Shown: positions 275 to 39,800, counted from the first letter of the stretch. The stretch: 40,025 nt of DNA from Perkinsus olseni (GCA_013115125.1 JABANN010000316.1:1-40025); one strand, 5' to 3'. A program made the numbers and translations. Notes: generated by a model from the letters alone, not told the origin.

Positions 275-3200
275 TCACGATGTCTGCAAAGATACCATTA
301 TTATAAAATCAATCTTTTCTTCCGAACGAGCGTCCCTTTTTCGAAGAGGATAGGTAGTTTCGTCAGCACGGATGTCATCGAAGAGACCGTCATCACCGTC
401 AACAACAGTATAAACACCGCAGTCCCGAGCACTACCTGGTAATGGTTTTGTCATAAATTTCGCCGTCCAGCAGACCGCTCTCCTCGGCAATTTTAACGTC
501 GATCGGTAGGTAGCCGACAAGATACTGCAAAGCGTTGTGAGACTCAAATTCACTGGCGATGGACGTCCAAATGGATCTGGAAAAGGACGCTGGTTCGATT
601 CCCAGGGACGACATCTCATTAAAAAATTACCCGTGTTTCTCGCTGTCTATCAGCGAGGTCAAAGTGGCAGCTCGGTGATACTCCTTGTCGCTGAGAAGCG
701 GTTGCATTGCCGAACCTGACGCAGGAAAAATGGTCCAGCCGGGAATCGAACCCGCGACCTCAAGCAGCTACCATCTTCAGAGATGCGTTGAGGAATCGCA
801 AGATTTCAAGATTTCTCTACGAAACCCCAATGCAACATACACAAGAATTTCTTCATCGGCGTATGAAAAAGTTGCATATCTTATTCGTCTGCCCAACCCA
901 TTCTATAATCCGCATGCATCAACCTAAGATACCCCCCAACTCACTAAGAATAGTCCCGACAGCCTCTGTACTATCCATTGCCGACGCCACCTGAACCGCT
1001 TCTTCGAACCTGCGCCAAATTTCCTCCCAACGCCCCAATCGATCAACTTACTTTCTCTTCGCTATCAGCCACATGGCGTGGTCCAGCAAAGATCTCCGTG
1101 TCACCATCACAAACTCAATCGGGGTCGTCAGGAAGGCTAGCGTTTGGCGGCTCCGTGTAAGCGCCTTCTCGGACGAGGAATGTAGGGGTGAGAATCTTAT
1201 GACAGAGATAATTATTTCGGGGAAAAATTCTCAAACTTTTCGGAAAATTTTGGGAAAAATGATTTTCATCATCACGAGCAGCTACTGAATCTCGAATGAA
1301 AATTATTCCCCGAGAAATTGTGGAATTTCACAAGAAAAAATCTCCAACTGAAACCGAAAAAGAACTTCAGAAATTAAAGAAAAAGAGGATTATTCCGTCG
1401 CCCAAAGCGACTCGAAAAATGACCGTTAATAGCAGAAAATGGCCCAATTTTCCTACAAAACGCAAATATTTCCGCGGAAAAAAACTCACGCCAAGCCCGT
1501 TTCAGACGGTAGTATCCACCTAGCCGTCACGTCACTTGCACTGATGGGAACCTAAACAGGAACAGTAAAATAGCGAAAAATTTTTCATGTTTTTTACTCG
1601 GTCAGAAAAAGATGCTTCCCCTTTCAAGTTAACTACGTGGTGGACGAGGGAATCTGATAAATCTGAGAGGAAAAAATTTTCGAGCGCGGCTTTATTTCCG
1701 TGAACGAAACATGTTGCCGTGCTTCGCTCCGCTAGCATGCCAACATGCGCTGTCGGATTTTATGAAAGCTTCGCTTCGACCTAAGATACTACCTCCTGGT
1801 GATGATGTATCTTGAGCCAGTTTGATTCCTTCGACCGGGCAAGTGAGGATGGACAGCTGAGTTGACGAGATGAAGTCATCGGAATCACTTGGGATACCTG
1901 CGACCTCCCCCGTGTCGTGCCAGATTCAACCTAAGATACTCACCATCCCCTTTATCAAACAGGCCAATTCCAGTGACAGTAATATCGCTAGTGAATGAGA
2001 AGGCGCCAATAACCTGAGTACCGTATCTTAGGTCGAAGCACGTAAGATACGCGAGAGCTACCTGACCGTACCGCACAACCGTGCCCTTGCCAGTGCGTCC
2101 TGGACTATCCACCCGAGTGGCCATCAGTCGACAGACCCGCACGACCGGACCCCAGCTCAGTGCGATCAGCTCCTCTGTTAACCAGGAAACTAAAATCGAA
2201 AAATAAACCTTTTCCGAATTTTTTTCCATGCGAATTTTCCATTTTCGTGAATTTCTTATTGTGTCTGAGAAATTCTACCGATTGAATTTAACACGTGAAA
2301 GACAAAAGAGCGTTTTACAGGATTTAGCGCGGTCGATTTTTTCTGAATTTTCTGATCTTTTTTCCAATTTTTCCTGAGAAAGTTCTTGAAACTGAGGAGA
2401 GGCAATCCACTGAACACCCGGAATTTTTCGATCTGTAATTATAATTTTCCGTAAATTTTCGTGAAAATCGCGGAGCGAAGCTCACTCTGAGCCGACAGAG
2501 CAGCGGCGTGACTGTTGATGGAGTCGCTGAGGACTGGACGAGGGAGGAAGGTCACCTTATGCTTGGAGGAAATATCGTATATCTGAACGGACCGTCACTG
2601 CGCCACAAAATTGCTTCACTGCGCCACGAAATTATTCACTCTGAAAATAACAGCTTCACTGCGCCACAAAATTATTCCTTCGGAAAAAAACAGCGTCGCT
2701 GCGCCACGAAATTATTCACTCTGGAAATAACAGCTTCACTGCGCCACGAAATTATTCACTCTGGAGATGGCAGCTTCACTGCGCCACGAAATTATTCACT
2801 CTGGAAATGACAGCTTCACTGCGCCACGAAATTATTCTCTCGGAAAAAGACAGCTTCACTGCGCCACGAAATTGCCGAGTTATAACCTTCATTCCCTTCA
2901 GATTCGTCCAAGCTATCATGTTGTTCATCCACTCGATATTTGTTATTGTACCTTCACCTGCCAAGAGCATGGGTCAACCTAAGATACCCTCATCCGTGCA
3001 TCACCAGAATGCAAGATGGAATTGTTATTGAACAAAGTTCCGCGTTTGGTTAAAACCAATTTATAATCCTCCCCTCCAAAAACAACCGACCGGTGACCTG
3101 CGATAAAAAAAGAATCTTAGGTCGACCATGGCAACAAACAAAATACCGGATGCGTACAGCGGGTGAATCGCTACCGCCTTCACGGAGCGACTGACCAAGG

Positions 3201-36827: not shown

Positions 36828-39800
36828 ATGGTGTCTGCTGCCACTGCTGTGCTCGATCAGGTTATGGGGGTAATGTCCACTCCTTGGCGTCATTCAGAGG
36901 AAAGTTGTGAGAATTTTGGTATGACTGCGCCGCCGTCTCTGCCGATCGATGCGACCTCCCCAGCAGCGGAAGATTCTCCGACTGAAGTTCTTCTGAGGGG
37001 ATTGCGAATTCACGAGAAAACCGGGGACATGACACCGGCCGCGGCCTTGGCGTTCTCTCATCATGAAGGCTTTGAAGCGGCAGATGGATCGACCACTCCG
37101 GTGATGATAGCGACGCCGAGAGTGATGGGAAATGATGGCGAGAAGCTGGGTGGGAGTGGTTGTCGAGGGCCAGCGAAGAGGATCACCAGGATTCACAGCA
37201 TACCGTCAGAATCGTAGTAAAGGGTGGAAAAGGGGGAATTTTCGGGGAATTTTTTGAATTTTTTTGGGCGAATTTTAGGAAAATTTTGTTGGTATGGGCA
37301 GAGTAGGAGGAGGAAGTTTATTCCTCTTTCACAGTGAATTTTCGTGCTGTTTTTATGATTTGTTACCTCGCTTAGGAAACGGGGTTCGTCCGAATTTTGG
37401 AAAGGAGATTTTGGGGAGTTTTGGATTTTCGTCAAAATCGTTGCATATTATTGTAGAGATGAGTAGACGAGGAGCGTTCGGTTCCCGCGAAGGGGGTGGA
37501 GTTTTACGCTTTTTTGCCGTTTTTCATGATTTTTTAAATCGATCCCAAGAAGGGGACCGGGAAAAAATAGATTTTTCCTTGGTCATGCTGAATATTTTGG
37601 TGATCTGCCGAAAAATTTATGGGCGTGTCACTACGTGATGGCACTGCGTCGGTTGTCTAATGTGTGTCGGATATTATGGAAACCGGCCGGGAATATTCCG
37701 AAAATTTTCCGGAAATTTTCGAAAGGTGGGAAATCTCTCTAAGAGTAGCTTTTCCTACAAGTAAGAAAATTTTGGCCGAACAAGGGGTATAATCGTGCGT
37801 GAATTATTCCGATTATTCAGATATCATGTCTATCAAGCACCCATGTTCCACCAATTAGTGTTAAAACCGTTTTATCAGCGGCATCCGATTTCAAATGTCG
37901 TGATGGGATTGGTCATGGGAACCTCGACGTAATAAAGGAGGGAATCTTAGGTCGATCATTGTAATTGACGGATATTTAGATACGCTCGTAGTAGCATCGA
38001 GGAGGGGGTTGGTAGACTTATTCGGGCATCTCATCTTCACACTGGCGGATTCATTTTGATACCGAATCCAAAATTTCATGAAGACCCGTCGATTGTTGCG
38101 GCCCTTGCTAAGAATTTACGGCGAGGAAGAGGTAGTGACTTCGGGAGGGTTTGGGAATTTCGTGGCGCGTGAAGGTGATACGGCTGGAAACCGTGCGCTT
38201 TTTTCTAAAGGGAAAATGGGCTGCTGGCATTTGTTGATGCGGTCTGATTTGTTTTGTGGAAAATTTCCCTTTTTCACAATTTTTTGGAAATTTATCGGAG
38301 AAATTTTTGCTGTTTTCTTCCGAGGAAATGCCTCCAGTAGCGATTAAGCAAGTGGGATATTTCAGTGAAAATGTACAGGGTATTTTTTATCGAAAATGAT
38401 TGCTATTTGTTTTTTTGGAAATTTCGGCGGAAATCGGGAAAATAAATTCACGTTGTGATCAGGTTTCGGCTCAGCGTCTTTTCGTTTTGTTGTCTGGTGG
38501 ATTCCCGAGAGCCTTTGGCACTTCGTCGAGGAGTGGGTCGGCCGAACGCTCAGCGAAGGGAGGCAGGAGGATTATGGAGATAATTGTGGTAGTATCTTTC
38601 GGCCTTATGAAGATACTTCTTCTCGATGTTGTGACAAATATTTTGCGTATATTGAGATTTGAATTTCGTGGCGAGCAGCCGTTAATGAAATATTCTCCTT
38701 CTAGGTACCCGAGGTTTATCAGGCCACTCAGGGGGTTACGAGGTGCGTCTGTGGCGATTATTTTATTATTTTTACGATTTTTCTATCAGTTTGTCGACAT
38801 TAATTCATTCGAGGACCTCCACACACCGATGGGCTCGCCCGGGGATTTCCGGTTCAGCGATGTTCCTAAGCCGTGTGAGGAAGAGTAGTACTGGGAGAGT
38901 TGCGCATGGTGTGGTATCGAGCTGACTTTACATTCAGATCGGTAGTACCGATTCGGTACGTATGATAGACTATGATTAATAGATTGACTCGTTCGATCTG
39001 ATAGAAACTGGCAGCTCGCAACATCTTTGCTGTGCGCAAATCAGATATCTTCATACCTATCGAGATTTGGATTCCCCCACGCATGTGGAGATGCTGCGGC
39101 ACTTGCTGGCTGAATGTCATCAGTTTTTGACGGATCTTTTGGGAGAAAATTTTGTTAGCGGAGCGAAGCTGAGCATGGGGTTCCATTATCCGGTCCGGAC
39201 GCAGTACTCAACGTTGCATATGCAGGTAGTAGCATGGGTATCTTAGGTTCATCATAGTGCTCCACGGACGCTTAAGATATCTTTGGTTGCTGATATTTTC
39301 CTAGTATTCTGCGGTTCATACGCAGTTGATGTTCATGAACAAGATTCCGAAATTCTGGCGTGGAACTACCGAGGAAAAGATACTCAGTTGAAACGTGAAT
39401 TAGTTACATGAATTGCCCTCATCTGACGGGCCTTCGATGAATAGTGCGACTACGAATGGGATTGAACTCGGATGGTGCGGTAGAAGGTTCAGTGTCTTAT
39501 CTGCTTCGCTGAATCGGATCTTCTTTTTCTCAAGATTCGAGTAAATTCTGGTGATGTGGTGAGTCGGGACGGGCGAGGAGTGGCAGCTCGGCACGTCTTG
39601 GCGGTTCTGGAGAGGGACCCGATGCACTACGCTCGAGATAACATGCCGCTCAGGTGAGCTGAAAAAGATTTTTTTTCGGAGAAAAATCCGCAGATTTTTT
39701 CATGAGTGGCTGTAACACATTTAAGAAGTGAGAATTTCCTTTGGTCATTTCAGTGGTTTCAGCAAGAGTAAAAAACATGTCGTAACGTTTCTTGGCTGGA

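Follow-up and report, generated by a model that had tools for sequence, protein, structure and literature searches.

Why does a single 14-nt word, GTATCTTAGGTYGA, recur on both strands of a 40,025-nt stretch of Perkinsus olseni DNA (GCA_013115125.1 JABANN010000316.1:1-40025), and is the word itself the thing that is repeated? In the original prediction, made from the bases of this stretch, about 19 copies were noticed and were taken as a free-standing DNA signal. All results given here come from this single 40-kb stretch (the window), and they lead to another answer: the 14-mer is the invariant core and the outer end of a module of ca. 43 nt (sometimes 28 nt) with inverted ends, and the module is, on balance, probably a family of miniature elements of the introner or MITE (miniature inverted-repeat transposable element) type, nearest to the inverted-repeat introners of Amoebophrya.

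The word was found in 13 exact copies on both strands and in none of 100 dinucleotide-preserving shuffles, and is thus as far above chance as had been claimed; at ≤2 mismatches 29 matches were obtained (13, 5 and 11 with 0, 1 and 2 mismatches), the shuffles giving a mean of 0.56 and a maximum of 3. The half-word GTATCTT occurred 52 times (ca. 5 expected), and a profile search returned 27 units (E < 0.01). All 19 start positions of the original prediction were recovered, 13 of them exact, five with 1 mismatch (3112, 6746, 30222, 37942 and 39238) and one with 2 mismatches (30089); the starts given there as 3114, 6747 and 37944 are the copies 3112, 6746 and 37942 numbered from an inner base. The gap described between 6.8 and 25 kb held only chance-level matches (one with 2 mismatches at 10374 and, in the profile search, a weak one at 18813). 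A metagenome scan for GTATCTTAGGTYGA-N5-30-AAGATAC gave 5 loci, with 1 match each in apparently unrelated coding DNA; about a dozen chance matches were estimated, and the 5 loci were therefore taken as chance. Rfam and tRNA scans of the window gave no match, which sets the unit apart from known RNA genes. Literature searches, like the first reading, brought up no description of the word: 10-mers of the core were found only within unrelated primers, and no description of a Perkinsus introner was found (supplements and repeat databases such as Repbase lay outside the search), both words being present in PMC7789003 and PMC13685798.

The unit has the form 5'-GTATCTTAGGTYGA, ca. 21 variable letters with a TGGCA-like block, AAGATAC-3'; its ends make up a 7-nt terminal inverted repeat (TIR), GTATCTT...AAGATAC, and the consensus of a 14-unit alignment was nGGTATCTTAGGTTGAAnCTTGnnnnTnACGGAnnnnnAAGATA. 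When 19 copies were aligned on the core, the information content was ≤0.4 bits just outside the G of GTATC and was raised inside at +16, +19, +26 and +27; the flanks, described earlier as unrelated, are thus conserved on one side, for ca. 30–43 nt into the unit. An AAGATAC end (≤1 mismatch) stood at +41/+42 in 7 of the 27 units and at +27 in 3, and fell within +20 to +81 in 15 of 27 (17% of 5000 genic control positions); from this fixed spacing the common form was taken to be a 42/43-nt module. The inner 32 nt were weakly but significantly similar: 10 of 351 pairs exceeded the 99.9th percentile of a null made of random genic 32-mers (0.35 expected), and the best pairs were 59–72% identical. 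The core is far better kept than the interior (mismatch classes 13:5:11 for 0:1:2, interiors ca. 60–70% alike), in line with the claim that the word is kept more strictly than its surroundings, in a comparison inflated by the location of units through their core. Segments of 83 to ca. 970 nt were also bracketed by paired inverted cores. A terminal stem of 5–8 bp closed in 11 of 13 unit folds (units chosen for an inverted 7-mer); z was ≤ −2.2 in only 3 of the 13, most being no stabler than shuffles. Within the window, the copies belong to a longer shared element, the outcome that the original prediction had named as telling against it.

The gene map was based on Logan contigs (3 RNA-type runs, 1 DNA run) and on annotated P. 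olseni proteins, which were placed by ungapped tblastn, with boundaries then refined to GT..AG only; 49 introns between 4411 and 39855 were mapped in 5 transcription units from RNA contigs and protein models, most introns of ESS2 and of gene D being based on protein models. GT..AG bounded 49 of 49 mapped introns, the only form that the refinement allowed, and all 15 RNA joints listed out of 150; 17 of the 49 introns were 45–51 nt long, slightly above the unit length. The 19 units in annotated genes comprised 12 intronic, 5 junction-spanning and 2 exonic ones, i.e., 17 of 19 intronic or junctional at a 55% intron share of the annotated sequence (binomial p = 0.0014). The count omits the eight units that lie beyond the annotated genes: 6746, 29373 and the six of the 919–3112 set, the last because the gene that holds them is unannotated. 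Units were present in 15 of the 47 introns counted, all 15 in ESS2, CDPK or gene D. Both strands are in use, as had been said: the units in annotated + strand genes stood 9 sense and 10 antisense to transcription. Their distance to splice sites was variable, from junction-spanning with ≤27 nt exonic to more than 300 nt away. The word had been called confined to blocks of housekeeping genes; a confinement to genes that bear introns describes it better. The unit-free zone consists of an intronless protease open reading frame (ORF, 7474–8751), a PIF1-helicase fragment (18724–19053) and otherwise unannotated DNA, and the contrast is therefore one of introns versus none, not of housekeeping versus other genes.

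The ends of the unit serve as splice sites. In six short introns a single unit accounts for most of the length: 25194–25242 (49 nt), 34835–34885 (51 nt), 34974–35036 (63 nt), 35372–35446 (75 nt), 35532–35582 (51 nt) and 37929–37979 (51 nt). The 5' splice site |GTATCT at 34835 coincides with the first base of the GTATCT end of the unit; introns 31485–31686 (RNA-supported) and 35372–35446 close with the AG of GTATCTT(T)AG|GT, and the 3' splice sites at 25654, 26528, 35036 and 37979 are supplied by the AG of ...AG|ATAC, so that in the latter four the final four letters of the unit are exonic.

We suggest that a non-autonomous miniature DNA element would enter genes in either orientation and would be spliced out of the mRNA by the normal GT-AG route. 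Whichever way the unit lies, its inverted ends would offer a GT at base one (|GTATCT) and an AG followed by the last four bases (AAG|ATAC); the long arm may supply an additional AG|GT (CTTAG|GTYGA). The unit and a few flanking letters would then form a ca. 50-nt intron typical of the genome in this window, since the spliceosome would use the sites of the unit or sites nearby, and old copies would decay to ordinary intron sequence. From the features above we infer that the family is mobile; its copy number, its origin and its mode of insertion are conjectural to the same degree, and the units would have created introns rather than settled in existing ones.

Two observations fit such a family. 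The ESS2 intron 25194–25242 and a putative 46-nt intron at 1898–1943 (−), in unrelated genes, were ca. 80% identical over 41 nt. Contigs from other places in the genome or transcriptome matched the window from 34594 rightwards and diverged to the left (X7 and X8), and matched up to 35042 and diverged beyond (X8); the outer edges of copies 34595 and 35027 are 1–2 nt away from these divergence points, and the foreign left flank at 34594 was not found within the window. The outer edge of the unit is thus a sharp repeat boundary that similar copies elsewhere have too; this is a hint of mobility, but not evidence that the whole 446-nt segment moved. Terminal repeats that need recognition for copying would behave in the manner seen here, with a well-kept core and a diverged interior.

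Amoebophrya (Syndiniales) is a parasitic dinoflagellate, a related myzozoan. The portions of Farhat et al. 2021 used here (PMC7789003) describe introner elements with 8–20-nt inverted repeats in thousands of introns, with 3–5-nt direct repeats and no transposase, and give them a MITE-like reading; more than 60% of the introns are non-canonical, and 252 and 1954 strain-specific families are reported for two strains. As far as that text goes, the likeness lies in short inverted repeats able to close a hairpin and in splice sites at variable offsets; many families and singletons occur there, and the introner organisation is found in some canonical introns as well (PMC7789003). By the same portions of text (PMC7789003), the window differs in its introns (49 of 49 GT-AG; mostly non-canonical in Amoebophrya), in the one 14-nt core common to all copies (hundreds of families there), in the boundary direct repeats of 3–5 nt, no consistent counterpart of which was seen at the 43-nt units, and in size (unit of 43 nt; mean intron lengths of 120–240 nt there). 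The end pairing of Amoebophrya introns occurs within the units of short window introns, and no end-to-end excess was seen over the 49 introns.

MITEs have terminal inverted repeats, no coding capacity and a sharp outer boundary, and lie in or near genes in both orientations. The window unit resembles them in its inverted ends, sharp edge, genic location and use of both orientations; it differs in being shorter than usual (43 nt), in having interiors only 60–70% alike and in that no target-site duplication was found. The fungal introner-like elements of van der Burgt et al. 2012 are reportedly short introns with a predicted secondary structure that multiply and decay to ordinary introns, and are said to be sense-only and alike over their entire length; the units in the window, in contrast, lie in both orientations, and their folds are mostly not significant.

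Among the introners of Gozashti et al. 2022, the excerpts used here (PMC9860276) give family median lengths of 30–654 nt, TIRs in 72 of 177 and target-site duplications in 49 of 130; with duplications in only 49 of 130 families, their lack does not exclude membership (PMC9860276). The definition used there, according to the same excerpts (PMC9860276), asks for at least 4 similar introns in unrelated genes and for similarity that extends to within ca. 10 intronic or 5 exonic bases of both boundaries. Similar introns in unrelated genes were found here (15 of 47 introns, three genes), as were TIRs, and insertion in both orientations is allowed for in that text (PMC9860276); similarity to both boundaries holds roughly for introns 34835–34885, 37929–37979, 35532–35582 and 34974–35036, whereas in the long introns of the window the 30–43-nt similarity reaches one boundary or neither. 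A word search of the main text of PMC9860276 gave no mention of Perkinsus.

Several findings weigh against plain insertion of such an element. Neither six inverted pairs nor the 43-nt units showed a consistent target-site duplication, and the interiors of the segments between two inverted cores were not homologous to one another. Neighbouring pairs, counted by hand from the profile list, were convergent (+,−) in 6 cases and divergent (−,+) in 7, so that the long pairs of TIRs may be coincidental; one long element per inverted pair was rejected, as the pair 25197/25645 encloses ESS2 exon 4 (conserved ...LDQFHSRY|GSEDNASF) and neither the pair statistics nor the interiors support it. The exonic ATAC of copy 25645 provides the Tyr of SRY(G/T)SEDNASF, also present in human ESS2 (8c6j chain 4); this is an ancient codon, and the copy is therefore not wholly inserted DNA. 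Copies 29024 and 31458 are read as coding, and the core residues SKVE of the latter align with SKVD of Perkinsus marinus. On both sides of intron 31485–31686 stands a direct repeat (25 nt or more, 2 mismatches) that includes the unit (31458/31678); in the protein it appears as a VEACSW/VEACSS duplication. Exons began with ATAY after 9 of 49 introns, compared with 4 of 403 (1%) exonic AG sites, and only 4 of the 9 retain a visible unit. The inflation of core conservation noted above belongs here as well. The oddities at the junctions suggest either an integration steered by homology with the end of the unit itself or selection on the junction.

Most of the ATAY exon starts read A|TAC or A|TAT, and 6 of the 9 provide a Tyr codon. 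Three further candidates for the origin of these structures were rejected: a PIF/Harbinger-type TTA duplication (TTA on the left and TAA on the right are inverted, not direct), a TA duplication (A at the second position in 5 of the 19 copies listed first) and a tandem-duplication origin of intron 31485–31686 (interiors unlike).

The same junctions bear on the first alternative, in which break repair or template switching by microhomology renews the unit and pastes it beside exon sequence resembling (A)AG|ATAY, the 14-mer being part target and part filler. The ATAY starts (9 of 49 introns against 1% of 403 exonic AG sites, 4 of the 9 with a unit), the ancestral coding status of the ESS2 ATAC, the missing target-site duplications and the 25-nt direct repeat (2 mismatches) with a unit on both sides of intron 31485–31686 all speak for it; no donor–recipient pair was found, a discrete element accounts better than random filler for the constant 42/43-nt length and for the 7-nt TIR, and the ATAY excess may equally be a splicing preference. 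We hold this alternative to be doubtful, though it is the best placed of those considered. A related proposal, slightly more doubtful still, is a self-targeting intron generator: the AAGATAC end would guide integration beside exonic (A)AG|ATAY, the junction so made would supply the 3' splice site, and the final four letters would belong to the coding sequence of the host. Such a generator would explain the 9 of 49 ATAY starts, the ancient ESS2 Tyr codon and the missing target-site duplications together.

Selection could instead keep the unit in place as a cis-acting splicing signal, either a binding site for a protein or a small nuclear RNA or a pair of complementary boxes that join splice sites. 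The limitation of the units to introns and junctions and a core conserved well above the interior agree with this, as do the complementary copies 25197 and 25645 that flank ESS2 exon 4 and the inverted-repeat introns described for Amoebophrya in the portions used of PMC7789003. We nevertheless regard it as improbable: with 9 and 10 units in the two orientations the RNA would carry two different sequences, the unit has no fixed place (junction-spanning to more than 300 nt off), 32 of 47 introns lack it, and single-unit folds are mostly no stabler than shuffles. Pairing between intron ends was likewise no stronger than in mismatched controls (mean −8.26 vs −8.79 kcal/mol; 49 introns, Mann–Whitney p = 0.82). 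The U12-type (minor) intron 5' splice site has the consensus GTATCCTT; reading the core as such a site was rejected, the offsets from the 5' splice site being 0–240 nt and half of the copies antisense.

The free-standing DNA-level word of the original prediction (an uptake, Chi-like or chromatin-protein site, independent of introns and kept by selection or templated mutation) would account for the extreme enrichment, the invariant 12–14-nt core and the use of both strands, and is very improbable all the same: the word belongs to a longer homologous unit, the inverted ends of which serve as splice sites, introns or junctions hold 17 of the 19 units that fall in annotated genes, and no copy lies in the intronless protease gene or in the long ABCG exon, which copy 6746 adjoins from outside. 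A Chi- or uptake-like stand-alone word was rejected on the same count and on homology over ca. 43 nt. An assembly, adaptor or chimera artefact, which had been offered as the other way to undo the prediction, is negligible: contigs from runs of other studies cover the copies (in copy 39238, X7 and X8 have the G of the perfect consensus at 39250), the AG within copy 31678 is used for splicing in RNA contigs, and copy 29024 is translated in proteins annotated on other P. olseni assemblies.

Along the window, the first six units lie in the unannotated region at the left. Exact copies on the − strand were located at 919..932 (a GTGAGT-like site lies 12 nt upstream on that strand), 1776..1789 (preceded on the − strand by GAG|GTA), 1926..1939 (preceded by ATG|GTGA) and 2974..2987 (preceded on the − strand by GAGG|). 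A 28-nt unit, GTATCTTA...TAAGATAC, occupies 2023..2050 (+), forms a perfect 8-bp hairpin stem (z −4.3) and is inverted relative to copy 2974, 965 nt off; a 1-mismatch copy at 3112..3125 (+) is followed on the − strand by TTTTTTTATCGCAG, which resembles a 3' splice site. The genes that hold the copies at 919 and 1776, and the whole − strand region of copies 919–3112, are without annotation; Pfam searches with seven − strand ORFs (1–3.3 kb) were empty, and a 123-aa ORF at 278–646 (−) had 0 matches in a representative-protein search. A 1-mismatch copy of the 28-nt form, 6746..6773 (+), stands directly upstream of the long exon of the − strand ABCG gene.

In the ESS2 gene, an exact copy of the 28-nt form, 25197..25224 (+), starts 3 nt into the 49-nt intron 25194–25242. 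The exact copy 25645..25658 (−) spans the 3' splice site of intron 25342–25654 (...TCAACCTAAG|ATAC), its exonic ATAC holding the conserved Tyr codon of SRYGSEDNASF; a 42-nt unit at 26491..26532 (−), with a 2-mismatch core at 26519–26532, spans that of intron 26157–26528 (CTTCAG|ATAC). A 2-mismatch copy, 27031..27044 (−), lies within intron 26914–27107. The exact copy 29024..29037 (+) had been placed in a probable ESS2 exon; it is coding (SILGRS) in two annotated P. olseni models (P0122 and P0123), the placement resting on models and not on RNA. Another exact copy, 29373..29386 (+), begins 12 nt past GAG|GTGAGT, a 5' splice site in model P0123.

In the calcium-dependent protein kinase (CDPK) gene, intron 30070–30557 contains a 2-mismatch copy at 30089..30102 (−), the profile match of which begins 4 nt from the 5' splice site, and a 1-mismatch copy at 30222..30235 (−) in its middle. 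A 43-nt unit with the core variant GTATCCAAGGTCGA, 31458..31500 (+), contributes its first 27 nt to a coding exon and opens intron 31485–31686 with its last 16 nt; the exact copy 31678..31691 (+) has the RNA-supported 3' splice site of this intron inside it (GTATCTTAG|GTCGA). A 42-nt unit with a 2-mismatch core, 33315..33356 (+), ends 5 nt before the 3' splice site of intron 33073–33361; a 43-nt unit, 34131..34173 (−; 2-mismatch core 34160–34173), starts 5 nt past the 5' splice site of intron 34126–34335; and an exact copy, 34595..34608 (+), is found within intron 34445–34727. The 43-nt unit 34835..34877 (−) leaves only 8 of the 51 nt of intron 34835–34885 uncovered, with the 5' splice site at its GTATCT end and the 3' splice site 8 nt beyond the other end; a 107-nt exon side in the RNA contig data fits this intron. 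An 83-nt element, 34958..35040, is bounded by a core at 34958 (+) and an inverted one at 35027 (−); it begins with 16 coding nt (ESQVE) and encloses the 63-nt intron 34974–35036 with the 3' splice site CCTAAG|ATAC. The 43-nt unit 35385..35427 (−; exact core 35414–35427) lies in the 75-nt intron 35372–35446, the end of which is the second GTATCTTTAG|GT, and the unit of the 2-mismatch copy 35558..35571 (−) takes up 40 of the 51 nt of intron 35532–35582. In gene D, a 42-nt unit with a 1-mismatch core, 37942..37983 (+), lies in the 51-nt intron 37929–37979 and has the 3' splice site TTTAG|ATAC inside it; a 43-nt unit with a 1-mismatch core, 39238..39280 (+), stands 12 nt past the 5' splice site of intron 39226–39534.

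The five transcription units are as follows. ABCG (4324–6712, −) has 3 introns, and its transporter ORF (4904–6745, −) shared 98% identity with a protein of P. olseni and 91% with one of P. marinus, which places the window in Perkinsus, near P. olseni; a small unit (21147–21784, +) has 2 RNA-supported introns; ESS2/DGCR14 (23719–29118, +) has 12 introns; CDPK (29875–36186, +) has 24, at least 13 of them RNA-supported among the joints listed; and gene D (36858 to beyond the window end, +) has 8. The ORF 7474–8751 (+; 425 codons, intronless) was assigned to a pepsin-like aspartyl protease by Atlas features (0.96) and predicted structure (TM 0.70), a Pfam search with it being without match. A PIF1-like helicase fragment (Pfam E = 3.8e-13) lies within 18724–19530, beside long G-run/C-run inverted repeats and a 10-N gap (19361–19370), and this region may be the remnant of a Helitron-like or other transposon. 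Just upstream of ESS2, the repeat at 23430–23600 is rich in GTACGG/CCGTAC words, has inverted ends and showed a DNA contig depth of ca. 70–100× the local baseline; it looks like a high-copy MITE-like element. In an RNA contig, position 23717 is preceded by ATCTTGGCTCA, which we take to resemble the end of the perkinsid spliced leader; this looks like a spliced-leader remnant marking an ESS2 trans-splice acceptor at 23717–23718. The 3' end of ESS2 differs between public P. olseni models (28970–29640): P0122 stops at 29118, and P0123 splices to 29282–29635. Over 36183–36858, CDPK and gene D are fused in model P0125, while CDPK ends at 36183 in P0124; they are either separate genes or alternative forms. 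The 46-nt CDPK intron 30683–30728 contains GGTCCCCGGTTCGATTCCC, presumably similar to a tRNA T-arm; ARAGORN reported no tRNA at this intron.

Other repeated words were seen in the introns. A second dispersed word, (A)ATTTCGTGGCG(C), occurred 17 times (2622–2862, 21285, 25016, 29684, 29827, 31752, 35164–35224, 36499, 38157 and 38663); it lies 12–25 nt inside the 5' end of several introns, forms tandem arrays at 2573–2932 and 35150–35249 (20-nt and 40-nt periods), and has one copy in a CDPK exon encoding conserved ...RGAVTE. The mostly intronic GCGGAGCGAAGC was present in 5 copies (1721, 2470, 30941, 32619 and 39158), and AAAGATACGC, also mostly intronic, in 6 (3696, 21433, 30930, 31278, 32739 and 36793). 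Exons began with GT after 19 of 49 introns, and the commonest 5' splice sites were GTAATA (7) and GTAGTA (6). The introns in the window seem to be assembled from a limited set of recurring words.

The gain of spliceosomal introns is a long-standing question, and no mechanism for it is better documented than introners; Perkinsus, a basal branch of the dinoflagellate lineage, has members that can be cultured without a host and transfected. A family with an invariant 14-nt end, very small units and canonical GT-AG splicing would offer a compact system in which the acquisition of splice sites, the speed of decay and the targeting of insertion may be followed. The unit, taken together with the other intron words, could improve intron and gene prediction in Perkinsus, where public models conflict (P0122 vs P0123; P0124, P0125 and P0126). 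The ATAY exon starts could reflect targeted intron gain, and the self-targeting generator, if true, would amount to a sequence-directed, DNA-level gain of spliceosomal introns in a culturable eukaryote.

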